DNA of 64,000 nt, from sequence record MN850645.1. One strand, written 5' to 3'. Source of the stretch: Escherichia phage outra. A model generated the notes under the pieces. The model was not told where the DNA came from. It made no database searches and worked only from the letters and a program-made list of their open reading frames with translations. Position numbers and translations under genes: made by a program. Positions 4,772 through 64,000 of this stretch are shown in pieces. Positions within the stretch are counted from its first letter, which is position 1. Each line of letters starts with the position of its first letter.

Positions 4772-5206
4772 TTAGTTTAAAATTTCTTTGGCAATGGTAG
4801 AAGCAAGTTTTCCATCATATTGATTAGGATACTCTGCTTTAAGGTGTTTCATCATATCTGGCATTTTCTTGCCTGTCAAGGCAAATTCTTCAGCAATCGC
4901 TCGAAGGTCATCTTCAGATAGCATTTCTGGCAAATATTTTTCCAGAGTGGTGATATCACGCATAGCTCGCTCACATTTGCTAATGGAAGCATTAACTTTC
5001 TTAAGTGAGTCTAGCTCCTCTTTAGCGTGTGCAATACCAATCTTAACAATGTTAATCATAATATCATCTTCTGATTTATTTAGATTTGCCTTTTGAGTAC
5101 GCGCAAGGTCAAACTCACCAATAATATTAGTTAACAAAGCAAAAGCACCCTTATCGGTTGTACGTGCTAAGATACGATCTGCTTTCATTTGTGTCACAAT
5201 AGACAT
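4772..5206 (-). CDS. GatB/YqeY-domain protein
   Basis: LEKYLPEMLSEDDLRAIAEE and ADGKLASTIAKEIL resemble YqeY signature blocks; 144 aa as in YqeY. Confidence 0.65.
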   Translation of the reverse strand: MSIVTQMKADRILARTTDKGAFALLTNIIGEFDLARTQKANLNKSEDDIMINIVKIGIAHAKEELDSLKKVNASISKCERAMRDITTLEKYLPEMLSEDDLRAIAEEFALTGKKMPDMMKHLKAEYPNQYDGKLASTIAKEILN

Positions 5207-5218
5207 TCTATTCTCCTC

Positions 5219-5791
5219 TTATTTGCTAATGCTTTGAGTCTTGTTTACAACACGGTTTATTGCCAGTGAAGCCCTAGGCTCTGCAATACCTGTTGCATAG
5301 ATATAAGGATGACCTTTTGGAGACTCCCTCATACCGAATGAACCTAATTCTAAACCATATTCATCCTCTACGTCAACCCCAATATTAGTGGGTACTAAAT
5401 ATGTTTTAACTCCATAATAAGTAGAGAAGAAACAGCGCATAGAGTTAGCATACTCTTCAATTGTAGCATCAGGGTAGAACTCAATCAACTCCAATTTCAA
5501 GAAAATATTAAAATGGGTATCATCTAAATTTTCTTCTGTGCGGTAACATGGTGTTAGTGCCATATACGGATTACCTACTGCAAATTCAAAACCATCCTTC
5601 TCCATTTGCAGGAAAGATTGTTCTGCACTAGCTACATAGTATTTACCGTTAGGATGCCCTAATGGGCGATCCTCTTTATTTTCTGGTAGTGTATACGCCA
5701 GTATATCAGCATCCACGAGATATGGAACTTCCAACATTTGTGCAAATCGACCATAGTAATCAATAGCTTGAGCTATTACTGCAACATTCAT
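5219..5791 (-). CDS. hypothetical protein (190 aa)
   Basis: ORF in operon orientation. Confidence 0.55.
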   Translation of the reverse strand: MNVAVIAQAIDYYGRFAQMLEVPYLVDADILAYTLPENKEDRPLGHPNGKYYVASAEQSFLQMEKDGFEFAVGNPYMALTPCYRTEENLDDTHFNIFLKLELIEFYPDATIEEYANSMRCFFSTYYGVKTYLVPTNIGVDVEDEYGLELGSFGMRESPKGHPYIYATGIAEPRASLAINRVVNKTQSISK

Positions 5792-31640: not shown

Positions 31641-31998
31641 ATATTTGAGGGGGACGGTCGGCAGAAATCGGGGGGTGCTGAAAATCGCGTTAAGCACCTC
31701 TCGCAAGCGAGCAGTATTTTGCGGCAAGTTATTGATATTATTGGCTTTACGCTTATGAAAAGGGGGTGTGTCGAAATAAAGCGGGTATACCGGAAAATTT
31801 TTGTGGCATAGATATTTATTTGTCTATATTATGTACAAAGGGGTGTGTTAAAAATATTAGGTATATATAGAATAATTGATAGGGAAATCCTATACTAATC
31901 CCTCCATTAATGATGTTTCTATGTTACTGTTCTTGTAATAGATGAAAAGACGCTGTATGATGTGTGGCATGAAACGTAAACTTATAAAGGAGTCTGAT

Positions 31999-32376
31999 AT
32001 GTGTGTTCCTCTTAGCAGTCCACTGCTGTTAGAATTTTATAAAGCATGGATGCAAGATCATTCCTCAATGCATCGTGAGAATGTTGGTTTGTGTATTTGC
32101 CTTATGGATTATCTGGCAACCACTATGTCAAAGAAAAAACCTACGCGAGAAGATATAGAACATTTCAAGATGGTTCGTAGTAAAACGCTGGAAGAGATGA
32201 AATTGCAATTCACGTGTGCTGGGCTATCCTCCTTCCTGCCCTTTAATGATGATCTTCTGTGTTATGAAGATGAAGGTAAGAAACATTCTTGCCATACTAA
32301 CCCAGAGAGATTGCAGTGGGTGAAAGATCGTATTGCCGATTCGTGTTTGGTGTTAGGGGGTGACAATGAAAAGTAA
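31999..32376 (+). CDS. paralogue-family protein A1 (Cys/His-rich, 125 aa)
   Basis: AAGGAG SD before ATG 31999; shares S..LL.FY..W, GLC.CL.DY, QFTCAGL..LPFN, CHTN..RLQWV..RI.D with three downstream paralogues. Confidence 0.6.
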   Translation: MCVPLSSPLLLEFYKAWMQDHSSMHRENVGLCICLMDYLATTMSKKKPTREDIEHFKMVRSKTLEEMKLQFTCAGLSSFLPFNDDLLCYEDEGKKHSCHTNPERLQWVKDRIADSCLVLGGDNEK

Positions 32377-32734
32377 TATTCCGTTGAGTAGTGCAGCTTT
32401 AATACGATTCTATAAAGCATGGATTGCCAACCATCCGGCAATGAATCGCACAACGAGTGGCTTGTGTGGTTGTCTGGTAGATTATGTAGATGATTTTGTT
32501 GGTGAGGTAACTAGAGAAGAAGATAAAAGATGGCGTGATCGTTTGTTGGATAGTTTGAAATACGAAATGAGGAAACAATTTACATGTGCAGGACTGGACT
32601 ACAATCTTCCGTTCAATGCAGATTGCATGGATTACCTTTCAGAATGTATAGACTTGGCGTGTCATACCAACACGTTACGTCTTCAATGGGTGAAAAACAG
32701 AATCGAAGATGCAAATAATGCTTGCATTGAATAG
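32360..32734 (+). CDS. paralogue-family protein A2 (124 aa)
   Basis: same conserved blocks as A1. Confidence 0.6.
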   Translation: MTMKSNIPLSSAALIRFYKAWIANHPAMNRTTSGLCGCLVDYVDDFVGEVTREEDKRWRDRLLDSLKYEMRKQFTCAGLDYNLPFNADCMDYLSECIDLACHTNTLRLQWVKNRIEDANNACIE

Positions 32735-32804
32735 AAATGCCTGTACACTGTGTTCCATAAGATATGCAATATCGCGCATAACAAACTACTAATGAGAGGT
32801 GTAA

Positions 32805-33263
32805 ATGAAAACTGTATCTTTGTATCTTGCTAACACGGAGCGTGTACATAATCTTGTAAAAGAATGTGGTGTGAGTGTTCAATTTAACACAGGAAAGCCT
32901 TCTGTGGTGATAGGCAGTGAGATGTGTGTTATTGATTTCATCAATGAATATTTTCGTGGGAAGCCTATTGCTCGTCACTTCATCCGAGAAATGCGAGATG
33001 TACAACAGGATTATGAATTCTACCCAGAAATTTGTGAACGCTATGAAACTATTCTTAGTTCTGTAGAAGATCCAGATACCAGTGAAACAGGTGCTTCCCA
33101 CTTACTGTGGATGTTGAATGAAATTCAGGATGGGTGTAATGGTATGTCTGAAACCAAACGCCATCGTTGGCTAGGTTATATTCAGGGTGTTATGGTTATG
33201 AAAAACCTTATTACAGTGAATGACGAACGTAATGCTACACGCCCCGTCTTTAATGGAGCATAA
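32805..33263 (+). CDS. hypothetical protein (152 aa)
   Basis: GAGAGG SD. Confidence 0.55.
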   Translation: MKTVSLYLANTERVHNLVKECGVSVQFNTGKPSVVIGSEMCVIDFINEYFRGKPIARHFIREMRDVQQDYEFYPEICERYETILSSVEDPDTSETGASHLLWMLNEIQDGCNGMSETKRHRWLGYIQGVMVMKNLITVNDERNATRPVFNGA

Positions 33264-33264
33264 C

Positions 33265-33480
33265 ATGAAAAGGATTCAGGTGTGTATTGAAAATAATTGT
33301 GGTTATCTGGGGTTGACACACGTTGCTTTCCCTCTTATATTAGATGCTGATATCGCTTACAGCGGAGTTGCTTATGTGTCATTCAAGACAATGAGCCAAG
33401 TACCTGGCTGGAAGTGGGAAGTAGTTGATGTTGTTGAAGGAGAAGATTATGTTTTCCTTCCACACGAATATACTGTTTAA
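33265..33480 (+). CDS. hypothetical protein (71 aa)
   Basis: start moved to ATG 33265. Confidence 0.45.
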   Translation: MKRIQVCIENNCGYLGLTHVAFPLILDADIAYSGVAYVSFKTMSQVPGWKWEVVDVVEGEDYVFLPHEYTV

Positions 33481-34352: not shown

Positions 34353-34648
34353 CTGTTACAGAAAAACTGCGTTGTATTGCAAAGCAAAGTGGAGAAGGTT
34401 TATGGTTTCCTATTGAGGAAATTATTCAGGACTGTTATGATCAGGCTAAGACTGGCAAATATTCCAAAGCATTTAAACCATCTGTTTTCGGTTTGGATGA
34501 CTATCCAAAAAATGAACAAGCAAAGAAACGACAAGTTGATTTGATTGATCTTGCTATGGAAGCACTACGAGAGCATGGACTTAGTAAGGTGTATGCTTTA
34601 AACACCAAAGAGGGCTTTGTAGATTCAGTGATCGTAGACTGGTATTAA
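34349..34648 (+). CDS. hypothetical protein (99 aa)
   Basis: 4-nt overlap; GGAGAGGAAG SD. Confidence 0.5.
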   Translation: MTVTEKLRCIAKQSGEGLWFPIEEIIQDCYDQAKTGKYSKAFKPSVFGLDDYPKNEQAKKRQVDLIDLAMEALREHGLSKVYALNTKEGFVDSVIVDWY

Positions 34649-34657
34649 GGAGAAGTC

Positions 34658-35026
34658 ATGCAAGAGAATACTAAAGTGTGTAGCATGAAAAGCAGCCCCT
34701 ATTTGCTACAATTTTATGCGTGGTGGTTAGAACAAGAAGATACAAACTTTAGCAAAAAGCATTATGGTCTTTGCACGTGTCTTGTAGACTTCTTATACAA
34801 TATTGCTTGGATAAAAGATGTTGAGAATGTAGCAAACCTCCAATCCTCTGTACGAGAGGAAATGAAGGAACAATTTAAGAAAGCGGGTTTGAACCATTTA
34901 CATCCGTTTAATACGGATTTCTCGCACTACTTTACGGAAACAGAGTTAGGCATTGCACACCTTAATAAAGAACGTGTACAATGGGTGATTGATCGTATTC
35001 GTGATATGGAGGAATACAATGGTTAA
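34658..35026 (+). CDS. paralogue-family protein A3 (122 aa)
   Basis: YLLQFYAWW, GLCTCLVDF, HPFN, RVQWVIDRIRD blocks. Confidence 0.6.
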   Translation: MQENTKVCSMKSSPYLLQFYAWWLEQEDTNFSKKHYGLCTCLVDFLYNIAWIKDVENVANLQSSVREEMKEQFKKAGLNHLHPFNTDFSHYFTETELGIAHLNKERVQWVIDRIRDMEEYNG

Positions 35027-35237
35027 GTTTAAAACTTTCTGTGCAATCACTGTTTGTCTTATTCTTGCATACGTGTTATTCTCTGGTATCGTTCGTTTAG
35101 GTGAGTATATGGCAAGAGAAGCTCGTGAAAGTGCAGCTAAAAAAGAACAGTGTATTGTGTTCAAGCATCAAAGAGATGCTGAAAAGTTTCTCGCACTTGA
35201 TTGCAATCGTTATGTATCTTATCAAATGTATGAGTAA
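35019..35237 (+). CDS. small membrane-anchored protein (72 aa), paralogue of 39728-39952
   Basis: start moved to ATG 35019 with GGAGGA SD; shares KE.CI..KH...AE.FL...CN.Y motif. Confidence 0.5.
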   Translation: MVKFKTFCAITVCLILAYVLFSGIVRLGEYMAREARESAAKKEQCIVFKHQRDAEKFLALDCNRYVSYQMYE

Positions 35238-35246
35238 GGAGGGTTT

Positions 35247-35471
35247 ATGGTAAAACGTCTGGAATGGGATGCGTGTACTGCTCACGCTTGTCACTGTGAT
35301 ATTGTTGAAGATCCTAATGGAGAAATGGTGTATTATGAAGATTACGAAGCATTGCATAATGCTGTGATCGCTTTACTGGATGATATTAGCTCACGCTATC
35401 CAGGACAACAGTTTACGTGTCCACATATTCAACTGTTAGCCAAACTTACGGAGTATCCAAGTGTTCCATAA
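35247..35471 (+). CDS. hypothetical Cys/His protein (74 aa), shares CDIV.DP.G motif with 40604-40876
   Basis: AAGGAGGG SD. Confidence 0.5.
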   Translation: MVKRLEWDACTAHACHCDIVEDPNGEMVYYEDYEALHNAVIALLDDISSRYPGQQFTCPHIQLLAKLTEYPSVP

Positions 35472-35472
35472 T

Positions 35473-35640
35473 ATGGGTGTCCCTGAACAACTCCTCTTTA
35501 TTGTAGGACTAGTAGGCTTATTGGCGGCTGGCGCTAAAGCCGCTTCTCACACGCATCACATAATGTTAAGATTTCTATTCCTGCTCCCTTCTATCCTCGT
35601 GTTATTAGTCATACTGATCGATAATATTTTGCACAATTAA
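35473..35640 (+). CDS. hypothetical membrane protein (55 aa)
   Basis: hand-translated; no SD (TAATATG coupling). Confidence 0.3.
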   Translation: MGVPEQLLFIVGLVGLLAAGAKAASHTHHIMLRFLFLLPSILVLLVILIDNILHN

Positions 35641-35649
35641 GGAGAGGTT

Positions 35650-36234
35650 ATGAGTAAAATTATACCAAGCAGTTATGAATTATTGCAGTTTTATGTCTAT
35701 TATATAGACTGGGTTACTAGATCGAATGTTAAAGACAATGCGATGTTTAGTAAAAACATCTGTTTAACAGAAAGTATCTTCCGTTACTGGCACACAGGCA
35801 GAAAGTGTACACACAGTGAAGCTATGCGCATTGTAGGAGAATATCTGGAGCAATTGCAAAAAGCAGAGTTACCTGTCCTTCACCCATTCAACGAATCTAA
35901 AGAAGAATTAGAACAAGAGTGTAGAGAAGGTAAGTGCCATTTGAATGAAAAACGTATCGAATGGGTGAGGCAACGTTTAGCCGATACAGGAAAGCCTCCT
36001 AGTGACTCTGACTATACGTGGTATGATGTAGAGGGTTTAGTTCAAGGTTTTGAGGCTTGTGCTATAGATAATACCAACTTTGCCAAAGTTTTATGCGAGG
36101 CTTATGATCTGGCAGATAAAATCCGAAATCAAGGATGGAAACAAGAGCATAAAGAATCATATGAACGTCTTGACAAGATTTTCAAACAGATCTATTCTAA
36201 CCACAAAGAGATGTTCCAAATGGAGGATGTGTAA
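35650..36234 (+). CDS. paralogue-family protein A4 with C-terminal extension (194 aa)
   Basis: ELLQFYVYY, HPFN, CHLNEKRIEWVRQRLAD blocks; AAGGAGAGG SD. Confidence 0.6.
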   Translation: MSKIIPSSYELLQFYVYYIDWVTRSNVKDNAMFSKNICLTESIFRYWHTGRKCTHSEAMRIVGEYLEQLQKAELPVLHPFNESKEELEQECREGKCHLNEKRIEWVRQRLADTGKPPSDSDYTWYDVEGLVQGFEACAIDNTNFAKVLCEAYDLADKIRNQGWKQEHKESYERLDKIFKQIYSNHKEMFQMEDV

Positions 36235-36917
36235 TGAAAGAGATTATGTTTGAAGGTCATCGTTACGAAGTTCCAGACAATGCAAATTTCATGGCTCGTG
36301 ATATCACTGGAGATGTGTTCTGGTTTGAAGATGAACCTGTGTTTTCGAACAAACACTGGTTTTCACAACAATCTTCTTCGGAAAATATGACTTTTGGTTA
36401 TGTAGAACCTAAAGTACGTTGCAAAGCAGCTTCTTCTTTGGTAAAAATTTCCCAAGATGACCAAGAAAATACTCAAGATGTTGTTAGTGCGCTACTGAAG
36501 TACATTGCAGAACTTGAGAAGAAAATTAAAGAAGCAGAAACTAAGGTGGAAGCACGATCAGCAATCATCGAAGCTATGTCTGAACGTATTTTAGAACTAG
36601 AAGATTTGTGTGGAGAGGCTTATCAAGTGGTTGGTGCACTGGCTTGTGAAGCACAAATGTTTGAAACTTCAGAACAAGTTTCACATATGTTAGATAATTT
36701 GAGTGAATGTAAAATGATTCATGATGATGTGTTACCATTTTGTTGCAATGTTAACAAAACAGAGCAAACACAAGATTCAGAAACAGTTTATGTTCCGCTA
36801 ATGTGTGTTCCAGATCATCTAAAAGGTGTATTCTCTTGTAAATGGTCGCTGTTGAGCGTTACTAATTGTGGTGAAAACTATTCTGCTAACATTGAATTGC
36901 TAAAACACGTTAAATAA
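36234..36917 (+). CDS. hypothetical protein (227 aa)
   Basis: ATG overlaps upstream stop. Confidence 0.55.
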   Translation: MKEIMFEGHRYEVPDNANFMARDITGDVFWFEDEPVFSNKHWFSQQSSSENMTFGYVEPKVRCKAASSLVKISQDDQENTQDVVSALLKYIAELEKKIKEAETKVEARSAIIEAMSERILELEDLCGEAYQVVGALACEAQMFETSEQVSHMLDNLSECKMIHDDVLPFCCNVNKTEQTQDSETVYVPLMCVPDHLKGVFSCKWSLLSVTNCGENYSANIELLKHVK

Positions 36918-36927
36918 GGAGAGTAAG

Positions 36928-37332
36928 ATGTGGTCTGTTAAAATCAAATATAATGCACAGTATTATGGTGGACAACCTTATGAAGTTGTTATTTGTGACT
37001 GTATCTCTAAAGAAGTTGCACAGCTTTGTGGCACTGGTGTTAGTGAAGCTATGAACAAAATGCATAACTCGACTGTGCGTTACCTGGATCAAGATATTCC
37101 AGAAGATGTAAATGATTATGGTTACGAAATTATTTACAGTGAAGGTAAGAAGCTCTCTATTGAAGATGCACTTAAAGCACTACCTGCTATGTGCAATCCA
37201 ACACCAGAAGCAGTTAAAAAGATTTTACCAGAATCCAACCCCGATGAATATGCTGCTATGGTTGCTTCAGACATGTGGAATCTCTGTCGAGAAACTATGA
37301 TTAAAAATCTGGTGGAAATGGCGCATGAGTAA
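36928..37332 (+). CDS. hypothetical protein (134 aa)
   Basis: AAGGAGAG SD. Confidence 0.55.
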   Translation: MWSVKIKYNAQYYGGQPYEVVICDCISKEVAQLCGTGVSEAMNKMHNSTVRYLDQDIPEDVNDYGYEIIYSEGKKLSIEDALKALPAMCNPTPEAVKKILPESNPDEYAAMVASDMWNLCRETMIKNLVEMAHE

Positions 37333-37543
37333 AACGCACTTTATACATCCATTTGATCCAAAGAACAAGGCGGTTATACACCGCCGTTGGACTGAAACGC
37401 GCATTACAAAATGTCCTGTGCCAGCAGCAGAGGAATATAACAAAACATATAAAGCAGAATTTGTGGAGTACACCTTTGTGAATAACAAAGGGAAAGAGGT
37501 TTATGTTCCAGAATACTGCCTTTGGATAAAATGGGAGGAATAA
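37325..37543 (+). CDS. hypothetical protein (72 aa)
   Basis: overlapping start. Confidence 0.45.
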   Translation: MSKTHFIHPFDPKNKAVIHRRWTETRITKCPVPAAEEYNKTYKAEFVEYTFVNNKGKEVYVPEYCLWIKWEE

Positions 37544-37710
37544 TGCAAACATTTTTTATCGACAAGTTCAATAAAAATATGAACACGTGGATGGCAACAT
37601 TCACTATGCAATTTGCATCGTTTAAAGAAGCTCAAGAATGGTGCGATCAACACAAGGATTTTGATTTTTACTATCAAATCAATCCGAATCTCTCTCCAGA
37701 GGAGAAATAA
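37543..37710 (+). CDS. hypothetical small protein (55 aa)
   Basis: start moved to ATG 37543 with GGAGGA SD. Confidence 0.45.
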   Translation: MQTFFIDKFNKNMNTWMATFTMQFASFKEAQEWCDQHKDFDFYYQINPNLSPEEK

Positions 37711-37711
37711 T

Positions 37712-38056
37712 ATGTTGGCTGATATTGAAATCCTTATGTACCGACAAGGTATGATCAAAATGTGGCTAGATTCTTTTAGCAACATATACTGCACAGTGCG
37801 ATCAGCAGAGGAGCGTAAAACGCTTATTTTATCTGCTATTGTTGATAAACAACGTTTCTTCAAAGAAGTTTTGCAAACAGGCTTCTCCGATGCAGGAGTA
37901 GAAATTGCAACTCTTAGTCTTGGGGTGCTGTCTTACTTGGAATCCGTTGTTTTATATGTCTTCTCTTTAGAAGAACACTTGCAATTTGAAGCATTAAAAC
38001 TTATCTTAGATGCTGCAATTGACATAGAACAAAATCGAATTGATTCTTTTGAATAA
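37712..38056 (+). CDS. hypothetical protein (114 aa)
   Basis: start moved to ATG 37712 with AGAGGAG SD. Confidence 0.5.
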   Translation: MLADIEILMYRQGMIKMWLDSFSNIYCTVRSAEERKTLILSAIVDKQRFFKEVLQTGFSDAGVEIATLSLGVLSYLESVVLYVFSLEEHLQFEALKLILDAAIDIEQNRIDSFE

Positions 38057-38072
38057 AAATAAGGAGGAAACT

Positions 38073-38531
38073 ATGCAAGAGGTTAAACATTATCCACATG
38101 GTCGTAGTTTTGTAGCTGTATGGCATGTTCCTGCTCGTAATGAACTATTTTGTGCATCTTTTCATTACAAAGATGGACAATATTTCACCTATGACGAGAC
38201 AATGGATGATTTTATCCCAGAGTGCGATCACGGGTATACACCAATGTTCTTTAAACGTATGAAAGCTCGTTTCTTCGTTACAGATGTTGATGGTGAACCT
38301 ACTTGGCATATCGAAGAAGATTGGCAAGATTCTGTAGATATTAAAGAAGCCCCAGAATGGGCTACATTACTGGTACACGTCAAAACCCCTACTCTTGACG
38401 TTATGGCGTGGGTTAATCATGATGATACCCATTACCAATACATAAATGGTAGCACAGAGATTTCTGGTGAGATTATTGGTCGTTGGAAGCCTACGAATCA
38501 GGTTGCCATTGTCGGGTATAAGACAGTATAA
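38073..38531 (+). CDS. hypothetical protein (152 aa)
   Basis: start moved to ATG 38073 with AAGGAGGA SD. Confidence 0.55.
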   Translation: MQEVKHYPHGRSFVAVWHVPARNELFCASFHYKDGQYFTYDETMDDFIPECDHGYTPMFFKRMKARFFVTDVDGEPTWHIEEDWQDSVDIKEAPEWATLLVHVKTPTLDVMAWVNHDDTHYQYINGSTEISGEIIGRWKPTNQVAIVGYKTV

Positions 38532-38532
38532 T

Positions 38533-38727
38533 ATGAAAAATAGTGTAGACTGGGATGATTTATCCGATTTTGAAAAATGGTTCTTAGGTAGTGGTTGTTA
38601 TGCAGATGGGGATCTCGAAAGAGATCCTTCTGGAAATTACACTATGCCATTAACCCAAGGTTTTTATGAGTGCTGGTGCGCAGCACAAAACAACGTACTG
38701 AATAAGGAGACAACACAATGCAATTAA
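38533..38727 (+). CDS. hypothetical small protein (64 aa)
   Basis: start moved to ATG 38533. Confidence 0.4.
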   Translation: MKNSVDWDDLSDFEKWFLGSGCYADGDLERDPSGNYTMPLTQGFYECWCAAQNNVLNKETTQCN

Positions 38728-38957
38728 ACATCGGACAACCAATTTTTGATGCAGATACTGGTCAATATGCAGTGATTGTTGCTCGTATGAGCGGTGATGA
38801 CCTTATTGTTTCAGAACTACTCGGATCAGATCCGCAACTGCGCGTAGTATGTGACCTATATCTTCGAGACGAAAGTGATCGCATTGCACTGAAAGAAGAT
38901 GGTATGCTCTACTACACCTGGACTAGAGATCCTGGGGTAACGGAGGTAGAGGTATAA
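38718..38957 (+). CDS. hypothetical protein (79 aa)
   Basis: AAGGAGA SD. Confidence 0.5.
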   Translation: MQLNIGQPIFDADTGQYAVIVARMSGDDLIVSELLGSDPQLRVVCDLYLRDESDRIALKEDGMLYYTWTRDPGVTEVEV

Positions 38958-39256
38958 TGGTAAGGAATAGGGGTTTACATAAAAGAAGACACCTTACTTA
39001 CTGGCATCGTAAAGTACATGAACCTGTATCAAAGAAAGAATGGCAATATCTGCCTTATGGGAAGGAGCGAAGAAAGTATTTGTTAGCTCATTTAAGGGTA
39101 CATGGTTCTCTTCCTGTTAACAGTAAGTGGCAATTGCAAACAGCTTATGACGAAGATATGAAATATCTGTTAAAGAGAGGCATTATTTGCCTTGTTAAGA
39201 TAGGACGATGGAAATCTCGTCAATCTTATATCGTACTTAAACAGGAGAAACGATGA
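38957..39256 (+). CDS. hypothetical basic protein (99 aa)
   Basis: GGAGGTAGAGG SD. Confidence 0.5.
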   Translation: MVRNRGLHKRRHLTYWHRKVHEPVSKKEWQYLPYGKERRKYLLAHLRVHGSLPVNSKWQLQTAYDEDMKYLLKRGIICLVKIGRWKSRQSYIVLKQEKR

Positions 39257-39504
39257 ATATCAAAGATGTTGTAGCATACGTAGAAGATGAAGTTAAAAAC
39301 CATACAAGTTTACTGAAAGTAATGGTTGTGGTTAAAGATGGTATTGGACAAGTAAACGTACAACATGTCTTATCTGACACTGTATATAATGTGTTTGAAT
39401 GTAAAGAAACACCTCATGGAGTACGTGTGGTTTATATTGATAACAATTTCAAAGAATGTGTGAGACATACCTTAGAAAATGAACTAAGGATCACAATCTT
39501 ATGA
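39253..39504 (+). CDS. hypothetical protein (83 aa)
   Basis: 4-nt overlap. Confidence 0.5.
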   Translation: MNIKDVVAYVEDEVKNHTSLLKVMVVVKDGIGQVNVQHVLSDTVYNVFECKETPHGVRVVYIDNNFKECVRHTLENELRITIL

Positions 39505-39674
39505 GTTATTATGTTGTACCTTATGCCAATAAGTGGAGAGTAAGAGAAACTTGTTTTCTATTCTCCTGGTGGGCTACGTTCGGAGATGGTTGTGGAAATG
39601 ATACAGGAAAGCCTGTAGAGTACGACACAAAAGAAGAATGTGAACAGTGGATAAAATTAACACAAAGATGTTGA
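39501..39674 (+). CDS. hypothetical small Cys-containing protein (57 aa)
   Basis: hand-translated; ATGA overlap. Confidence 0.35.
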   Translation: MSYYVVPYANKWRVRETCFLFSWWATFGDGCGNDTGKPVEYDTKEECEQWIKLTQRC

Positions 39675-39727
39675 CACGATCTTAACTTCTTGTTAGTATC
39701 AATGTGTACTAACGATAAGGAGGGTTT

Positions 39728-39952
39728 ATGAAGTCTGTAAACAAGTTGCAACAATTTTTGTTATCAACAGCAATCTTTTTGCTTTTGTTAATTGGTATTC
39801 TGTATGGTGCATCTAACTTATACAATCTACATAATGATGTAGAACAGAATAAAGAGAAGTGCATCATTCTAAAACACAAGAAACAAGCAGAAGATTTCTT
39901 AAAGAATAAGTGTTACAACTACATTGATTATGAGGAGACAAACAATGATTAA
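39728..39952 (+). CDS. small membrane-anchored protein (74 aa), paralogue of 35019-35237
   Basis: AAGGAGGG SD; hydrophobic N-terminus; shared C-terminal motif. Confidence 0.55.
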   Translation: MKSVNKLQQFLLSTAIFLLLLIGILYGASNLYNLHNDVEQNKEKCIILKHKKQAEDFLKNKCYNYIDYEETNND

Positions 39953-40187
39953 AGAATTAGGTATGCGAGTATACAGTGAGTGGACTCCAAGCAATGGCCC
40001 AGGAGTTGTTGCAGCTAAATGTATCAATGGTCGTATTGAGTACCTGGAAGGGTATGAAGATAATGAAGAGTTAGTAGATTATGCTAAATCTTTTATTGAA
40101 GATGATACAGACTTTATTGTATTATATGATACAGGAGAGTTAGAGTATGGATATGATGGAGATGGGGATATCTTTGAACTTCAATAA
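39945..40187 (+). CDS. hypothetical acidic protein (80 aa)
   Basis: start moved to ATG 39945 with GAGGAG SD. Confidence 0.45.
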   Translation: MIKELGMRVYSEWTPSNGPGVVAAKCINGRIEYLEGYEDNEELVDYAKSFIEDDTDFIVLYDTGELEYGYDGDGDIFELQ

Positions 40188-40281
40188 GAGTAGTAAGTAA
40201 GGTATAAAGAGTATATAGTTAGTTATAGAGTTAGTAACATTACATATACTCTTTCCATGTATAACATGGAATATTCTCTAC

Positions 40282-40340
40282 CTCGCTATCGCTCGGTATA
40301 TAAGATTAGGGTAGCATGTTTTTTACGAAAAGTAAAACTG
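40282..40340. repeat. conserved intergenic element copy B (CTCGCTATCGCTCGG ... TTAGGGTAGCATGTTTTTT)
   Basis: 18-bp core identical to 11616-11633. Confidence 0.6.
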
Positions 40341-40394
40341 TTTATACCGATTGATAGCAGGTTTTTAATAGATTCTATCTATGAGGAGTAGAAA

Positions 40395-40613
40395 GTGTAC
40401 AAATTATATAAAGGAAAAGATAAGTTTACGGGTAATACATCTGGTTTCTATGTAACACCACGTGGCGTTGCTGTATTTGACTGGATTCCTGGTACTCCAG
40501 ATCGTGAAATGATCTCTCTTGTAAAACTGTCGGAACAAGAGTACACTTACGGTGACATTACAACATTCTATTCTCGTGCAGAAAATCCAAAACTGATTGC
40601 GGAGTGGGAATAA
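40395..40613 (+). CDS. hypothetical protein (72 aa), GTG start
   Basis: GAGGAG SD 6 nt before GTG. Confidence 0.5.
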   Translation: MYKLYKGKDKFTGNTSGFYVTPRGVAVFDWIPGTPDREMISLVKLSEQEYTYGDITTFYSRAENPKLIAEWE

Positions 40614-40876
40614 TGGTTACACGATATGATTTAGAGGTGTACAGCCAAGGTGCTGCTGGTCAATGTGATATTGTACCAGATCCAGAAGGAGACTATGTTC
40701 TTCTTGCTGATTACAATAAGCTAGAAGAAAGGCTTCGGGCTGTGTATGCTAAAGAGAACAAAACAATCTGTCCTTATTGCAGTGGAATGGGTTGGGTGGT
40801 TGCAGATGTTGGACAAATGTATGAATGTGTACCTTGTAAAACCACAGGCTTTATTGAAAAGGATACTGACAAATGA
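40604..40876 (+). CDS. small Zn-ribbon protein (90 aa)
   Basis: CPYCSG...CVPCK pair of CxxC motifs; N-terminus shares CDIVPDPEG motif with 35247-35471. Confidence 0.5.
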   Translation: MGIMVTRYDLEVYSQGAAGQCDIVPDPEGDYVLLADYNKLEERLRAVYAKENKTICPYCSGMGWVVADVGQMYECVPCKTTGFIEKDTDK

Positions 40877-60329: not shown

Positions 60330-60656
60330 TTACCAAACGTGTTGAGAAATAATAGTTTCCGTTTCAATGTTATATTTTTCAAGAAGTTGTGCATAGGCTT
60401 CTTTTGCATTTTTATTTAGTTGCTCAAGATCTACAGCTACACTTCCTTCGCCACCTTCTAAATAAATGCCATATATGCAATAAGATTCATCAGCGTCATA
60501 GAAAGGAGAGATACGACTTAAATCAAGACCTTCTTGTAAGAACCAGTTAAAATCTCCATCAAATTCTTCTTCAATTCTAGGATCTTCTCCTACAGCTTCT
60601 TCCCATTTATTAAAAGGTGCGCCCTGTAACATACGCCATTCAATATTAGTTCCCAT
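60330..60656 (-). CDS. hypothetical acidic protein (108 aa)
   Basis: ORF in operon orientation. Confidence 0.5.
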   Translation of the reverse strand: MGTNIEWRMLQGAPFNKWEEAVGEDPRIEEEFDGDFNWFLQEGLDLSRISPFYDADESYCIYGIYLEGGEGSVAVDLEQLNKNAKEAYAQLLEKYNIETETIISQHVW

Positions 60657-60792
60657 TATCTTCCTCTTCTTCTTTTTCTTTAGTATGAACGAAACCTAGA
60701 CCGTTACAATTCCAACAAGGAATAAATTGTTCCATACTAACAATAAAATTCCCAGTACCCCCGCAGATAGGACAAATACTCACACCATCCAT
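60646..60792 (-). CDS. small Zn-ribbon protein (48 aa)
   Basis: hand-translated; CPICGG...CWNCNG. Confidence 0.35.
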   Translation of the reverse strand: MDGVSICPICGGTGNFIVSMEQFIPCWNCNGLGFVHTKEKEEEEDNGN

Positions 60793-61188: not shown

Positions 61189-62273
61189 TAAAAGTCTAAC
61201 TCCTCGTCATCACTTACATCTTTATTTGCTGAATTCAGTTTGTAAGCTGTAATTTGGATCTCCTGTGCTGCTGCTTGAATTTGATCTGGATTTAACCAAA
61301 CATCCATCCAAGGCAGTGGACTTTTCTTCGGTGCACGGAATTTGTGTTTCATTTTCAGTCTGCGATAGATAGGTGCAGCATTGAAGTAAACCCAAAGTTT
61401 GAACAACTCTGCGTTACCACCAACGATAACCCTTCCTTCACTAAACAGATAGTCACACCAATCTTCCTCTTGTCCAACTACCGTATCGAGAATTTCTGTC
61501 AGAACGTCGATATTGTCTTCGTATACTTTTCTCCAGACAGGATCTTTCAGCAGTGCATCAATAATAGCATAATCCATTTTAACGTGCAATAGTTCATCCA
61601 ACATAATTTTTTGAATGAGTTTAGCTGCACCTACAAACAATTGCTGCTCTGCTAAGGCAAATGTTGCAGCAAAAGAGGAGATGAACTGAATACCTTCCAG
61701 ACCGATAAGTGCAATCATTCCTTTCAGGATCAGTAGACGAAGGTTATCATCCTTCTCAATCAGACCTAGAGCATATTTATGTCCTGCCTCTGCCAGATCA
61801 CTCATTATCTCTTCAACTATACCCATCCTCTGGAAGATTCTTTCATTCTCCATGATCTGATCGATAACTTCATTTGGATTAGGGATACACTGACGAATAA
61901 TTTCAGAATATGTCAAAGCGTGTAAAACTTCCATTTCTGATTGCTTCATCATCATTGCACATGCTTCGTTGTTACTTAAAAATGGTGCAAACAAAGTGAT
62001 GATTGATTTAGCAAGTGAATCATTTTCCCATTGGAAAGATAGGTTTTTGATCATAACATCATAGTTGCTTTTAGAACAAGCTACGAAATCTTTTCGTGTC
62101 TGATCTAAGTTTACTTCGTTTTCATCCCAATCTTGCTGTTTTTGTAGTTTGTACAGACGATGCATTTCTGGGTATGTTACATTAATAGAATCAAAAATAC
62201 CTAACTGTTCGCCCAAAAATACAGGGTAGAAACCTTCTTTGTAAGTGTCGTTGTATAAATTAATTGCTGCCAT
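61188..62273 (-). CDS. nrdB: ribonucleotide reductase small (beta) subunit, class I
   Basis: di-iron ligand blocks EVLH and LEGIQFISSFAATFALAE...LDELLH, acidic C-terminal tail. Confidence 0.85.
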   Translation of the reverse strand: MAAINLYNDTYKEGFYPVFLGEQLGIFDSINVTYPEMHRLYKLQKQQDWDENEVNLDQTRKDFVACSKSNYDVMIKNLSFQWENDSLAKSIITLFAPFLSNNEACAMMMKQSEMEVLHALTYSEIIRQCIPNPNEVIDQIMENERIFQRMGIVEEIMSDLAEAGHKYALGLIEKDDNLRLLILKGMIALIGLEGIQFISSFAATFALAEQQLFVGAAKLIQKIMLDELLHVKMDYAIIDALLKDPVWRKVYEDNIDVLTEILDTVVGQEEDWCDYLFSEGRVIVGGNAELFKLWVYFNAAPIYRRLKMKHKFRAPKKSPLPWMDVWLNPDQIQAAAQEIQITAYKLNSANKDVSDDEELDF

Positions 62274-62595
62274 TTAAATCCTCCACAATATCACACATTG
62301 CTTTTATTGTATCAATGTGTTCTTTCTCCATACCATGCTCTATGTAAGCCTTCTCTAATGCGTTCCATACACTCTTTGTGAGTAGTACAGTAACTTCTCC
62401 CTCATATCTTGCCCTGGTTAAAGCATACCAGGTAGCTATGGGATCATTGGAAGCCCATATTTCAACACTGGAAAATTGAAAACCTGCAATATAATGACAA
62501 CACCAATCGAATGTAAAATCTTTACTATCTACCAGTGTATAATTGCCCCAACGCCTTTGTGGTGTTGCCCCAGGTAATACAACTAATGTAGGCAT
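62260..62595 (-). CDS. hypothetical protein (111 aa) between nrdA and nrdB
   Basis: start moved to ATG 62595 with AAGGAGGAAT SD. Confidence 0.45.
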   Translation of the reverse strand: MPTLVVLPGATPQRRWGNYTLVDSKDFTFDWCCHYIAGFQFSSVEIWASNDPIATWYALTRARYEGEVTVLLTKSVWNALEKAYIEHGMEKEHIDTIKAMCDIVEDLNGSN

Positions 62596-62636
62596 ATTCC
62601 TCCTTAAGAAATGGGGGACAAAGCCCCCTAGCTTCA

Positions 62637-64000
62637 TTACATCTTACAAGCCTCACAACCGGATTCTTCATCCTCTTGAGCGAGTGAGGTTGCTGATTTT
62701 GTTCGACTATTTAGATAGTACAAAGATTTACCACCAAGTTTTGCAAACTGAAGAATATATTGCATTTCTGATTTAATGGATAAACGACCACCTTCCATCT
62801 TAGAATAGTCAATCCACTTGTCACATGATGCACCTTGATCTAAGAATTTAGTCAACAGTCCATATGCTTCAGCCATATCTTTATCTGGCGTATCCCAAGC
62901 CGATTGGTAAATATCTTTTAGTTTATCGTAATCTGGCACAATAAACAGAACATTACCTTTTTGGCTTTGTTTATAAACTATAGTATCACGTACAGGATAC
63001 ACAGAGTTAGTCGTATTACTTACAAGACTACTGGACTCATTCGGAGCAATAGCTGCTAATACACTATTTCGGATACCGCCTTGTGCAATGATATCTTGTC
63101 GTAAACCTTCCCAATCCATTTTAAGTTTAAAATTGCCAATATCATCTACAGCTTTAGCGTAGGTGTCAATAGGCAACCATCCTTCAGGCCATTTGGTTTT
63201 ATGCATCCATTCTGCATTACCTTTCTCTTTTGCCAAACGAAGAGAAGCTCTTGCTAACCAATAATAATGTCTTTCTGCTAATTCGTGAATTAGTTTTTTG
63301 CCGTAAGGATCTGAATAAGTAACAAAATTACTTGCCAGATAATGTGCAAGGTTTGTAATACCTACACCGATAGACCTACGTGCTTTAGCAGTGATTTCGT
63401 TATGTTTAAACGGATACTGCATTGTTTCAATCACATTATCAATAGTTAGAACGGTATAATATGCAACATCTTCATATTCTTCTGGTGTAACACGACCAGC
63501 TACAATAGAAGACAGGAAGCATAATGCCAATTCTTGATCTTCTGTATTCTCACCTGTGAAAAGATCAGTCATATTGTGAAATGCTTTCGTAGGTAAGAAA
63601 ATTTCTTGGCACAAGTTTGACTGGTAAATAACATCCTTAAACGGAGTATGCTTATTAGCATTATCCGCAAAGAACATATAAATACGTCCTGTTTCTGCTC
63701 TTTGTGTAATAATTTCTGCCAGAAGATCTCTTGCTTTTACAAACTTCTTCTTAATTCGTTTGCGACTAACTTTTTCATATACTTCTTCAAACTCTTCCTC
63801 GCTTTTATAAAGCGCCTCATAGAGTTCTGGTGCTTCGTCATAACTGACTAGCATCCAATCTTTACCTTTTGCTGCACGTCGCAGGAAAGCATTGTTTACT
63901 ACAATAGAGTAATCAAGTTTATCTACTCGTTTTTCACTAACAGTAGTTGGGTTTTTCAAACGTACCAGATCTTCAAAATCAGGTTCTAATATTGTAAACG
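62637..64000 (-). CDS. nrdA: ribonucleotide reductase large (alpha) subunit, class I; 3' portion only, 5' end beyond window
   Basis: active-site SNLCQEI block and C-terminal ESGCEACKM tail; catalytic block lies only about 100 aa into the track ORF, so the N-terminal half must be outside the window. Confidence 0.85.
   Translation of the reverse strand, partial: FTILEPDFEDLVRLKNPTTVSEKRVDKLDYSIVVNNAFLRRAAKGKDWMLVSYDEAPELYEALYKSEEEFEEVYEKVSRKRIKKKFVKARDLLAEIITQRAETGRIYMFFADNANKHTPFKDVIYQSNLCQEIFLPTKAFHNMTDLFTGENTEDQELALCFLSSIVAGRVTPEEYEDVAYYTVLTIDNVIETMQYPFKHNEITAKARRSIGVGITNLAHYLASNFVTYSDPYGKKLIHELAERHYYWLARASLRLAKEKGNAEWMHKTKWPEGWLPIDTYAKAVDDIGNFKLKMDWEGLRQDIIAQGGIRNSVLAAIAPNESSSLVSNTTNSVYPVRDTIVYKQSQKGNVLFIVPDYDKLKDIYQSAWDTPDKDMAEAYGLLTKFLDQGASCDKWIDYSKMEGGRLSIKSEMQYILQFAKLGGKSLYYLNSRTKSATSLAQEDEESGCEACKM

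Follow-up and report, generated by a model that had tools for sequence, protein, structure and literature searches.

Two pairs of related small proteins in the left-end operon of a phi92-like phage probably reflect old paralogy and domain shuffling

The closest described counterparts of the four small genes considered here are gp007, gp008, gp022 and gp025 of phage phi92 (PHROGs 15662, 23083, 23204 and 22955, respectively), which are the same genes and are all annotated as "hypothetical protein." PHROGs places the partners in separate families, whereas we pair gp007 with gp022 (A1 and A2) and gp008 with gp025 (B1 and B2); no mention of either pairing was found in the sequence records or literature searched. 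Lytic coliphages are known to make small signal-anchored periplasmic proteins early in infection, as illustrated by T4 Sp, Imm and RI. We analyzed a 64,000-nucleotide stretch of Escherichia phage outra (MN850645.1, hereafter the window), which belongs to a phi92-like myovirus (Justusliebigvirus), is 96–98% identical in nucleotide sequence to phi92-like phages and matches phi92 gene by gene. Orthologues of the four genes were found in 55 of 55 close relatives. All four ORFs lie on the + strand behind good Shine-Dalgarno sites (GGAGG ahead of A1 at 35019, AAGGAGG ahead of B1 at 35247):

35019..35237, + strand: A1, phi92 gp007 orthologue, 72 aa, predicted single-pass membrane or exported protein (phrog_15662)
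35247..35471, + strand: B1, phi92 gp008 orthologue, 74 aa, N-terminal module and helical tail of the RYPGQxFTCPH type (phrog_23083)
39728..39952, + strand: A2, phi92 gp022 orthologue, 74 aa, diverged paralogue of A1 (phrog_23204)
40613..40876, + strand: B2, phi92 gp025 orthologue, 87 aa from ATG 40613, N-terminal module and zinc finger (phrog_22955)

Each protein matches its own PHROG over its full length (E = 1e-37 to 1e-61), and the genes are under purifying selection, with pN/pS values of 0.05–0.28 for B1, B2 and A2 (about 0.05 for B1, four genomes); the crude value for A1 is high (0.82), driven by two C-terminal alleles. The four ORFs are real, conserved small genes of the left-end early/accessory operon, and would be expressed early. 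An earlier note had begun the fourth gene at GTG 40604; ATG 40613 (MVTRY...) is almost certainly the true start, since it is the one used in phi92, shares 1 nt with the upstream stop and leaves the module near the N terminus, as in nearly all of the family.

Both similarities proved highly significant in pairwise alignment. For pair A, BLASTP aligned 13/28 identical residues (E = 6e-9), and the Smith-Waterman score of 84 (22.8 ± 4.2 for shuffled sequences) was attained in none of 20,000 shuffles; for pair B, 16/44 residues were identical (E = 3e-6) and the score was 64 (24.5 ± 4.6 shuffled; maximum 56 in 20,000 shuffles). The partners are reciprocal best hits among all 433 window ORFs (phmmer E ~1e-7 for A and ~1.5e-4 for B), and each matches the PHROG of its partner (A1 to phrog_23204 at 1.3e-5, A2 to phrog_15662 at 1.5e-8, B1 to phrog_22955 at 4e-4, B2 to phrog_23083 at 7.5e-4). 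Searched with family HMMs and regular expressions, the window contained two members of each family and no more. At the DNA level, pair B retains 79% identity over 38 nt (35286-35323 / 40655-40692), and no similarity was found between the copies of pair A; neither pair shows flanking repeats or DNA similarity beyond the 38-nt B motif. The details of the motifs required amendment, as the shared ending of the A motif is C-x-x-Y (CNRY in A1, CYNY in A2) rather than CNxY, and the similarity of B1 and B2 holds over the N-terminal ~45 residues but does not extend to their C-terminal halves, which are unrelated.

Given that the proteins are only 72–87 aa long and align over 28–44 residues, that a hydrophobic region forms part of the A similarity and that cysteines drive the zinc-finger similarity, one could suppose that short ORFs match here by chance or through similar composition, or even that they are no genes at all. 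This is extremely improbable and effectively refuted by the shuffles, which did not attain either score even when the membrane segment was left out, by the reciprocal best hits and by the independent PHROG profiles; moreover, homologues are kept across genera, the ribosome-binding sites are strong and selection is purifying.

A1 and A2 are full-length paralogues, consisting of a short, positively charged N terminus, one hydrophobic helix, a variable linker and a highly conserved domain of ~30 aa with an invariant C-x16-C pair. Their parts, and the gene preceding A1, are as follows:

34658..35026, + strand: gp006, P-family protein (LLxFYxWW..GLCxCL..AGL..PFN..RVQWV) upstream of A1
35037..35093, + strand: A1 hydrophobic segment, residues 7-25, putative signal anchor or signal peptide (mean Kyte-Doolittle 2.55 over 19 residues)
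35142..35225, + strand: A1 conserved C-terminal domain, residues 42-69, KEQCIVFKHQRDAEKFLALDCNRYVSYQ, with Cys45-x16-Cys62
39755..39811, + strand: A2 hydrophobic segment, residues 10-28 (mean Kyte-Doolittle 2.41)
39851..39934, + strand: A2 conserved C-terminal domain, KEKCIILKHKKQAEDFLKNKCYNYIDYE, from the BLASTP match to A1 and the family alignment

In the C-terminal domain, E43, C45, K49, A54, L58, C62 and Y68 are invariant across 33 aligned family members, and the AF2 model of A1 (pLDDT 75) shows a helix at 2-51 and a short helix at 54-59. Both hydrophobic segments carry two positive charges on the N side, and their C side is neutral or negative in A1 and net negative in A2. This charge bias, together with the segment itself, favours a predicted N-in/C-out orientation, judged from a crude charge count and from the signal peptide annotated for A2 in the phi92 record (SignalP 3.0). 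The opposite arrangement, in which the C-terminal domain would be cytoplasmic (N-out/C-in or peripheral), its cysteines binding metal across a dimer and its target a cytoplasmic or inner-leaflet host protein, is unlikely. It would agree with the Lys/Arg-rich character of the domain (9–11 positive charges, conserved RYVRYKQDN tail), with several family members that have no charged residue ahead of the helix, and with gp006, the translationally coupled upstream partner, which has no membrane segment and would therefore be cytoplasmic; the A1 start codon overlaps the gp006 stop, and phAPEC8 shows this P-then-A overlap too (gp233/gp232). However, the net charge averaged over the family is −0.6 in the first 15 residues after the helix, against +0.8 ahead of it, to which the amino terminus adds; a signal peptide is annotated in the phi92 record; and just two cysteines are invariant, no His or further Cys being conserved, a pattern more in keeping with a disulfide than with metal binding. 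In the preferred N-in/C-out reading, the C-terminal domain would face the periplasm, either anchored or released by signal peptidase, and may form a helix-turn-helix stapled by a disulfide, as the two invariant cysteines suggest. It could then bind a conserved host envelope or inner-membrane component early in infection, with superinfection exclusion or envelope takeover as possible roles. A2, the second copy peculiar to this genus, has diverged from A1, possibly toward a second target.

Neither the A nor the B family gave a significant match to Pfam, NCBIfam, PDB sequences or known folds. Pair B differs from pair A in that only a module is shared, and the following parts can be delimited, along with one related ORF elsewhere in the window:

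35247..35384, + strand: B1 N-terminal module, residues 1-46, MVKRLEWDACTAHACHCDIVEDPNGEMVYYEDYEAL... (profile search)
40613..40747, + strand: B2 N-terminal module, residues 1-45, MVTRYDLEVYSQGAAGQCDIVPDPEGDYVLLADYNKLEERL... (profile search)
40763..40861, + strand: B2 C-terminal zinc-finger half, CPYCSGMG ... CVPCKTTG, DnaJ/anti-TRAP-like
60649..60792, − strand: stand-alone 48-aa zinc-finger ORF resembling the B2 C-terminal half

The module spans ~45 aa, with a beta-hairpin/helix pattern (a three-stranded beta-meander, then a helix) and the consensus MVxRYE..(C.C)..E..GDYVxYEDYxxLE; the AF2 model of B1 (pLDDT 87) has two strands, at 5-10 and 15-21, followed by a helix at 31-50 and another at 61-69. 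A profile of the module retrieved at least 138 cluster representatives at E ≤ 1e-3 from enterobacterial phages and from lambdoid prophages, where its genes lie between the replication genes and ninB or next to NinX. In 133 of 140 proteins it begins no later than residue 8, and in most of the matches listed within residues 1–3; the proteins carrying it range from 52 to 318 aa, with varied C termini and often a coiled coil after the module. It may be a common handle by which different effector tails oligomerise or dock. The B1 module is 57–65% identical to prophage proteins versus 35% to B2, and the closest relative of the B2 module outside the genus (60%) is a protein on a lambdoid nin-region contig (P0111). 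The two are not mutual nearest relatives, ranking 89th and 78th of 129, in an identity ranking rather than a phylogeny, over ~45 aligned residues and among matches from a profile that contains both. The helical tail of B1 (RYPGQxFxCP) recurs in phAPEC8 gp227 and Kagunavirus gp67. The zinc-finger half of B2 scores below the Pfam thresholds (15 bits versus 32.7 for DnaJ_CXXCXGXG, 15.6 versus 32 for Anti-TRAP), matches phrog_13972 (E = 8.6e-9) and shares 63% identity with phAPEC8 gp205, a syntenic gene that has no module; phrog_13972 and gp205 are labelled "DNA ligase," implausibly so for a length of 65–75 aa. The ORF at 60649..60792 matches B2 (phmmer E = 3e-5 within the window, BLASTP E = 1e-6) and phrog_8027.

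In contrast to the widespread B module, the A family appears to be confined to Stephanstirmvirinae: its 61 clusters are all on contigs of ~140–155 kb, with only 3 IMG/VR loci. A2 was found only in the 55 Justusliebigvirus records, in a word-indexed search of 5.8 billion proteins and a tblastn search of 50,697 phage records, and A1 and A2 are both fixed across these records. In phAPEC8 there is one A gene, no A2 and one gene carrying the B module. In the conserved domain, A2 is 45–48% identical to every A1-type protein, and A1-types of different genera are 68–78% identical to each other, so that by identity A2 falls as an outgroup to the A1-types of all genera. As A2 is equidistant (~46%) from all first-copy orthologues, any A duplication is old, and duplication is the simplest origin of the pair given that the family occurs only in this subfamily. 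From these comparisons, A1 and A2 are genuine paralogues, but old ones, with no recent duplication.

The earlier note had concluded that the block underwent repeated local duplications; the homology of both pairs stands, but repeated duplication does not follow from it. We consider it probable that these real pairs are ancient, combining old A paralogues with B domain shuffling in the course of ordinary mosaic evolution rather than recent local duplication. On this account B1 and B2 are not duplicates of one gene: B1 is the module joined to a small helical tail, and B2 the module joined to a zinc finger that, in the ancestor, probably occupied this locus as a gene of its own. Shuffling by recombination is indicated because the N-terminal module alone is shared, is widespread and has closer relatives elsewhere, and because the phAPEC8 finger gene has no module; that gene could instead have lost the module, rather than the window lineage having gained it. 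Under the competing view that both pairs arose by repeated tandem or nearby duplication and then diverged, B2 later gaining or keeping its finger, one would point to both pairs occupying one strand of a single operon within 5.5 kb, to the A family being unknown outside the subfamily, which makes internal duplication the most economical origin of A2, and to the B motif still being 79% identical over 38 nt. Copy number does vary nearby, in the third (P) family at 31.9–32.7 kb, whose extra copies are present or absent among close relatives, but none of the 55 genomes showed such variation for A or B. Together with the outgroup position of A2, the closer prophage relatives of both B modules, the absence of repeats or further DNA similarity, and the unrelated C-terminal halves of B1 and B2, each with separate phAPEC8 homologues, this makes local duplication of both pairs unlikely.

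Alternatively, A2 and the B2 module may each have entered horizontally from other phages, through illegitimate recombination or recombination at short homologies, neither pair being an in-lineage duplication. Mosaic exchange is indeed active, the window ORF 32360-32734 being 90% identical to phAPEC8 gp244, and a fusion through microhomology exists in a natural variant (Logan SRR3713844 contig) that misses this segment:

35350..40052, strand not applicable: 4.7-kb segment from gp009 to gp022, including A2, deleted in the variant

The junction, at a 9-bp TATGAAGAT microhomology, joins the B1 module to the gp023 C terminus; the deletion suggests that, in some conditions at least, the phage can do without A2 and its neighbours. 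The occurrence of the module in Wifcevirus, Kagunavirus and lambdoid prophages, and the lack in phAPEC8 of both A2 and a module on the zinc-finger gene, would also agree with acquisition. Yet neither large search described above returned an A2-type donor, and pair A would need an unsampled source, so that acquisition of both is somewhat doubtful, and old A paralogy with B shuffling remains our preferred account.

Compared with known systems, the A proteins resemble T4 Sp, Imm and RI in their size (~70–100 aa), N-terminal hydrophobic anchor, short C-terminal domain predicted to be extracytoplasmic and location among early or non-essential genes; this likeness is one of architecture, and Pfam and PHROG scans revealed no similarity in sequence or profile. 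B1 shares its module (57–65% identity) with accessory proteins of the lambdoid prophage nin-/ea-region (PHROGs 492, 614 and 368), which are uncharacterised and without Pfam or NCBIfam match, are encoded between the replication genes and ninB and carry a coiled coil and variable tails after the module; B1 and B2 are far smaller proteins without their ETPATDAFLAEVRAQGV...LRKG tail. The module also weakly matches the first ~45 of 182 profile positions of phrog_3592, "Lar-like restriction alleviation protein" (E = 8.7e-4 for B1, 1e-3 for P0041 and kaset, 3.5e-6 for P0101), but the match is limited to this N-terminal head, and Pfam Lar (PF14354) gave none at E ≤ 1. Finally, with its CPYCSGMG...CVPCKTTG pattern, B2 resembles the DnaJ CXXCXGXG finger, anti-TRAP and the small phage zinc-finger proteins of phrog_13972, but it comprises only a single finger unit.

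An earlier note on this DNA had proposed that two pairs of small proteins encoded in the 32-44 kb operon are homologous. Mapping onto the curated phi92 record identified the four genes concerned, and a fifth, unpaired ORF elsewhere in the window resembles part of one of them:

35019-35237, rightward: A1, a small protein with a hydrophobic N terminus, corresponding to phi92 gp007
35247-35471, rightward: B1, corresponding to phi92 gp008
39728-39952, rightward: A2, the second protein of the A type, corresponding to phi92 gp022, for which a SignalP signal peptide is annotated
40613-40876, rightward: B2, corresponding to phi92 gp025, annotated there as "predicted DnaJ-like zinc finger domain"
60649-60792, minus strand: a stand-alone zinc-finger ORF of 48 aa that resembles the C-terminal half of B2 (BLASTP, E=1e-6)

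The results show that both similarities are real, as BLASTP, shuffled alignments, reciprocal searches and profile comparisons agree. Pairwise alignment, the check that the earlier note had named, was significant in both cases, with 13 of 28 residues identical between A1 and A2 (BLASTP, E=6e-9) and 16 of 44 between B1 and B2 (E=3e-6). The Smith-Waterman scores were 84 for the A pair (shuffle mean 22.8±4.2) and 64 for the B pair (24.5±4.6), neither of which was reached in 20,000 shuffles, and the A result was unchanged when the membrane segment was removed. Using phmmer on the window's 433 ORFs of 35 aa or more, we found the partners to be reciprocal best matches (E about 1e-7 for A, about 1.5e-4 for B). 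Each protein matches its own PHROG over its full length (A1, phrog_15662, E=1.7e-37 over 1-72; A2, phrog_23204, E=1e-49 over 1-74; B1, phrog_23083, E=1e-56; B2, phrog_22955, E=5.4e-61), and these independently built profiles cross-match both ways within the A pair (1.3e-5 and 1.5e-8) and within the B pair (4.2e-4 and 7.5e-4, over the N-terminal ~45 residues only). Family HMMs and motif regular expressions recovered exactly two members per family in the window, and no further member of either family was found among the 433 ORFs by regular expression, BLAST, phmmer or HMM.

Some details of the original description had to be revised. The shared A block stands, with C-x-x-Y rather than “CNxY” as its ending; the B motif is indeed common to both proteins, the similarity being limited to the N-terminal ~45 residues; and the fourth gene exists, its start being almost certainly the ATG at 40613 instead of the GTG at 40604. 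Separately, a minus-strand ORF at 62263-62637 (phrog_17458) ends in CDIVEDLNGSN, giving a 9-residue match (CDIVEDLNG) at its C terminus, and 14 nt at its 3′ end are identical to the B1 motif (TGTGATATTGTGGA); this match is probably due to chance, about 0.1 such 14-mers being expected.

The four genes belong to a long operon of some 40-50 small genes in rightward orientation, which in phi92 starts just inside the left terminal repeat and in the window extends from ~31.9 to 44.2 kb, where strong bidirectional terminators precede a leftward Sir2 gene. Its orientation and position near the left terminus suggest that the four genes are expressed early, and canonical ribosome-binding sites precede all of them. 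The surrounding 6.6 kb are 96-98% identical at the nucleotide level to 55 Justusliebigvirus records (subfamily Stephanstirmvirinae), including phi92, PaulScherrer, VEcB and Paula. Crude pN/pS values over four genomes were 0.05 for B1, 0.17 for B2, 0.28 for A2 and 0.82 for A1, the last inflated by two C-terminal alleles. A sigma-70-like site (39671-39699, TTGACA-17 nt-TAGTAT, with TG upstream) falls in the 53-nt interval directly before A2, which, as a lead only, could begin its own transcription unit there; promoter-like sites in the region are not enriched relative to shuffles (55 vs 51.8). The operon's first annotated gene, gp001 (32805-33263), is a diverged or replaced allele: for 32761-33300 blastn found no counterpart at this position in phi92, VEcB or PaulScherrer, while the flanks are 87-97% identical to theirs. 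Five records labeled “Campylobacter phage” (MG065639, MG065645, MG065656, MG065689 and MG065650) also came up: A150, A145, C3 and A110a are 95-99% identical over the 6.6-kb region, B15 carries phAPEC8-type homologues, and the C. jejuni host labels of all five look doubtful.

An N-terminal hydrophobic helix followed by E-x-C-x3-K-x4-AE-x-FL-x3-C-x5-Y defines the A family and is found in A1, A2 and 31 relatives. A profile search of 5.8 billion proteins with A1, A2 and two relatives returned 61 clusters, essentially all on phage-like contigs of 140-155 kb; IMG/VR contains three loci only, and tblastn against 50,697 phage records gave matches in Stephanstirmvirinae only. In the alignment, a short N terminus with mostly one or two Lys/Arg precedes a variable helix (mean Kyte-Doolittle 1.6-3.3 over 19 residues across the family, 2.4-2.6 in A1 and A2), a variable linker and a strongly conserved C-terminal block, KEQCIVLKHQKxAEKFLDxDCxRYVRYKQDN, with E43, C45, K49, A54, L58, C62 and Y68 invariant. 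The mean charge is +0.8 before the helix and -0.6 across the 15 residues after it, a bias that, taken with the phi92 SignalP annotation, modestly favors an N-in/C-out topology or cleavage of the segment as a signal peptide. The AF2 model of A1 (33 sequences, pLDDT 75) consists of a single long helix (2-51) and a short one (54-59), and the two invariant cysteines would lie one on each of these elements, in keeping with a disulfide staple.

A1 overlaps the stop of gp006 (34658-35026), a member of a third small-gene family, P, exactly as the A gene of phAPEC8 (gp232) overlaps the P gene gp233, suggesting that the P-A gene pair is conserved and translationally coupled; the adjacency is broken in Klebsiella phage KP13-26. 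Between A1 and B1, an additional 82-aa gene (phrog_17168) is found in VEcB, Paula, EmilieFrey and other relatives (2893-3141 in the locus of one relative); phi92 and the window, where the gap is 35237/35247, lack it, and KP13-26 has a homologue two genes beyond its A gene. The presence of this gene appears to accompany a 69-aa (versus 72-aa) A1 allele with another C-terminal end, as seen directly in VEcB.

The earlier note had concluded that the block underwent repeated local duplications. While its observation is confirmed, this interpretation proved only partly right: the homology holds, but a recent duplication does not, and the B pair more probably reflects a shared domain than a duplicated gene. 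The marks of a recent tandem duplication (mutual closest relatives, residual DNA identity and/or copy-number variation) were not found. The copy number of the A and B genes, for which a comparison with related phages had been suggested, does not vary, all four being full-length in the 55 close relatives, and a search of 31.5-44.5 kb for direct repeats gave nothing but a 38-nt B motif, which is also the only DNA-level similarity between B1 and B2.

Over the 28-residue conserved block, A1-type proteins of different genera are 68-78% identical to one another, whereas A2-types are 45% identical to the A1 proteins of Justusliebigvirus and 48% to those of other genera. Given this distance, the restriction of A2-type genes to the 55 Justusliebigvirus records and the lack of DNA similarity between A1 and A2, A2 is placed by these comparisons as an outgroup to all known A1-types. 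The first 26 kb of phAPEC8 contain one A gene. A2 could be an old duplicate lost in other lineages, a lineage-specific duplicate that diverged fast, or an import from a relative so far unsampled. As the A family is unknown beyond Stephanstirmvirinae, duplication is still the most economical origin, though not a recent one.

The N-terminal module of the B pair, by contrast, is widespread. The module HMM recovers B1 and B2 at E 1e-23 to 1e-28, and an exhaustive HMMER search of 1.84 billion cluster representatives with a profile of the module found 138 proteins at E<=1e-3, 46 of them at E<=1e-10. These proteins are 52-318 aa long, and the module starts within 8 residues of the N terminus in 133 of 140, at residues 1-3 in most of the matches listed. 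V2, R4, G25, V28, D32, Y33 and L36 (B1 numbering) are present in both B1 and B2; in both alignments G25 is invariant and R4, V28, D32, Y33 and L36 nearly so, V2 reaching 90% in the 28-sequence alignment only. Many carriers are prophage proteins, named only “hypothetical protein” in their clusters; after the module they continue into a coiled coil and variable tails (PHROGs 492, 614, 368 and others). In a Salmonella lambdoid prophage, one of them is encoded between ninB and the DnaB-like replication gene, and another adjoins NinX. Proteins with this head also occur in Wifcevirus (kaset, Mansfield) and, encoded by two neighboring genes, in a Kagunavirus. Both gp68 and gp67 of the Kagunavirus-like EC3-1 (locus 2119-2591) open with it (MVQRYE.../MVQRLD...) and differ in their C termini; tandem module-sharing pairs therefore also exist in an unrelated siphovirus.

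Based on ~45 aligned residues of profile-selected sequences, ranked by identity, the B1 module shares 57-65% identity with prophage-type modules and 35% with that of B2; B2 ranks 89th of 129 among the relatives of B1, and B1 78th of 129 among those of B2, whose closest relative outside the genus (60%) is a 52-aa protein on a lambdoid nin-region contig. The C-terminal halves are unrelated. The B1 tail, RYPGQxFTCPH, recurs in Kagunavirus gp67 and in the 151-aa phAPEC8 gp227, which has an additional C-terminal domain, and the B2 tail is a zinc finger (CPYCSGMG...CVPCKTTG) that is 63% identical to phAPEC8 gp205, a protein without the B module encoded at the syntenic site after the gp024 homologue. 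By the most economical reading of these comparisons, B2 is a zinc-finger gene and gained its B-type head by recombination, or phAPEC8 lost the head, so that B1 and B2 would share a domain and represent no duplicated gene. The stand-alone minus-strand ORF at 60649-60792 has the pattern CxxCxGxG...CxxCxxxG and matches phrog_8027. Zinc-finger proteins of 65-75 aa, including phAPEC8 gp205 (locus 5119-5316), phrog_13972 and many Phapecoctavirus records, are annotated “DNA ligase,” almost certainly a propagated mis-annotation.

Genuine copy-number variation and inter-genus exchange in the block are found in the P family. Window positions 31914-32684 (~770 bp) hold two extra P genes (ORFs 31942-32376 and 32360-32734; motif LLxFYxxW..GLCxCL..AGL..PFN..RLQWV), both of which phi92, VEcB and PaulScherrer lack and only 19 phage records have at full length; ORF 32360-32734 shares 90% amino acid identity with phAPEC8 gp244. 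In addition, Logan contig SRR3713844 (locus 1-1550) aligns collinearly with 34397-35349 and 40053-40665 of the window, revealing a 4.7-kb deletion (35350-40052) at a 9-bp TATGAAGAT microhomology, by which gp009-gp022, A2 included, are gone and the B1 head is joined to the C-terminal tail of gp023. If Logan contigs are assembled from k=31 unitigs, a 9-bp repeat could not fake this junction, which is thus probably a real natural variant and hints that the deleted stretch is dispensable. The fusion protein (P0039) had prompted the idea that A2 and gp023 (39945-40187) form a duplicated A-B cassette; this was rejected, as gp023 has no B-module similarity by HMM or BLAST and the fusion is explained by the microhomology.

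Homology, architecture, the restricted distribution of A versus the broad one of the B module, synteny and purifying selection are established; beyond these, we propose a mechanism in graded steps. The conserved, putatively disulfide-stapled C-terminal domain of the A proteins more likely than not faces the periplasm. That the B module acts as a common oligomerization or docking head displaying variable C-terminal domains is a tentative idea, and it is slightly less probable still that the A domain binds a conserved envelope or inner-membrane component of the host, for instance in superinfection exclusion or envelope takeover. A joint reading strikes us as improbable: here the ~45-aa B module would be a widespread, so far undescribed docking head with which enterobacterial phages and prophages bring swappable C-terminal effectors (zinc fingers, coiled coils or Lar-like ribbons) to a single host or phage partner, e.g., in counter-defense, and the A proteins would be periplasmic effectors of a new, disulfide-stapled class in Stephanstirmvirinae, A1 and A2 being specialized for different envelope targets.

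Databases already listed the four genes, each as a hypothetical protein in a PHROG of its own, and the literature searched contains no mention of them or of the A and B pairings. Our analysis assigns these “hypothetical” genes of phi92 to two families, defining a small Cys-x16-Cys family, predicted to be exported and specific to Stephanstirmvirinae, and a widespread N-terminal module common with lambdoid prophage accessory proteins and absent from Pfam and NCBIfam; it also corrects one start codon and flags the “DNA ligase” label. Phi92-like phages attract therapy interest because of their broad host range, and paralogous or dispensable early genes, as in the natural 4.7-kb deletion, inform genome minimization and knockout design, where redundancy may mask single deletions. 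Paralogues that have diverged and domains that have been shuffled are familiar among the small early or accessory genes of phages; the value lies mostly in annotation and knockout design, and no long-standing question or new system type is opened.

As to known systems, Pfam and PHROG scans gave no match of A1 or A2 to T4 Imm, Sp, RI or Hok/Gef-type families. For the B module, a resemblance to Ea22/Ead was rejected, as Ead/Ea22-like (PF13935) matches neither B1 and B2 nor ten prophage-type relatives, and the prophage, Wifcevirus and Kagunavirus carriers have no Pfam or NCBIfam assignment. Weak matches to phrog_3592 (“Lar-like restriction alleviation”) recur over the first ~45 positions, i.e., the head only; the match covers positions 4-50 of 182 and the Lar zinc ribbon (PF14354) gives no Pfam match to B1 or B2 at E<=1, so that this likeness is a lead and no family membership. 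The B2 finger scores below the anti-TRAP cutoffs (15.6 bits vs 32 for PF15777; 17.8 vs 65 for NF058604 RtpA) and below that of DnaJ_CXXCXGXG (PF00684; 15.0 vs 32.7), from whose repeated CxxCxGxG units it differs in having one CxxCxGxG and one CxxCxxxG.
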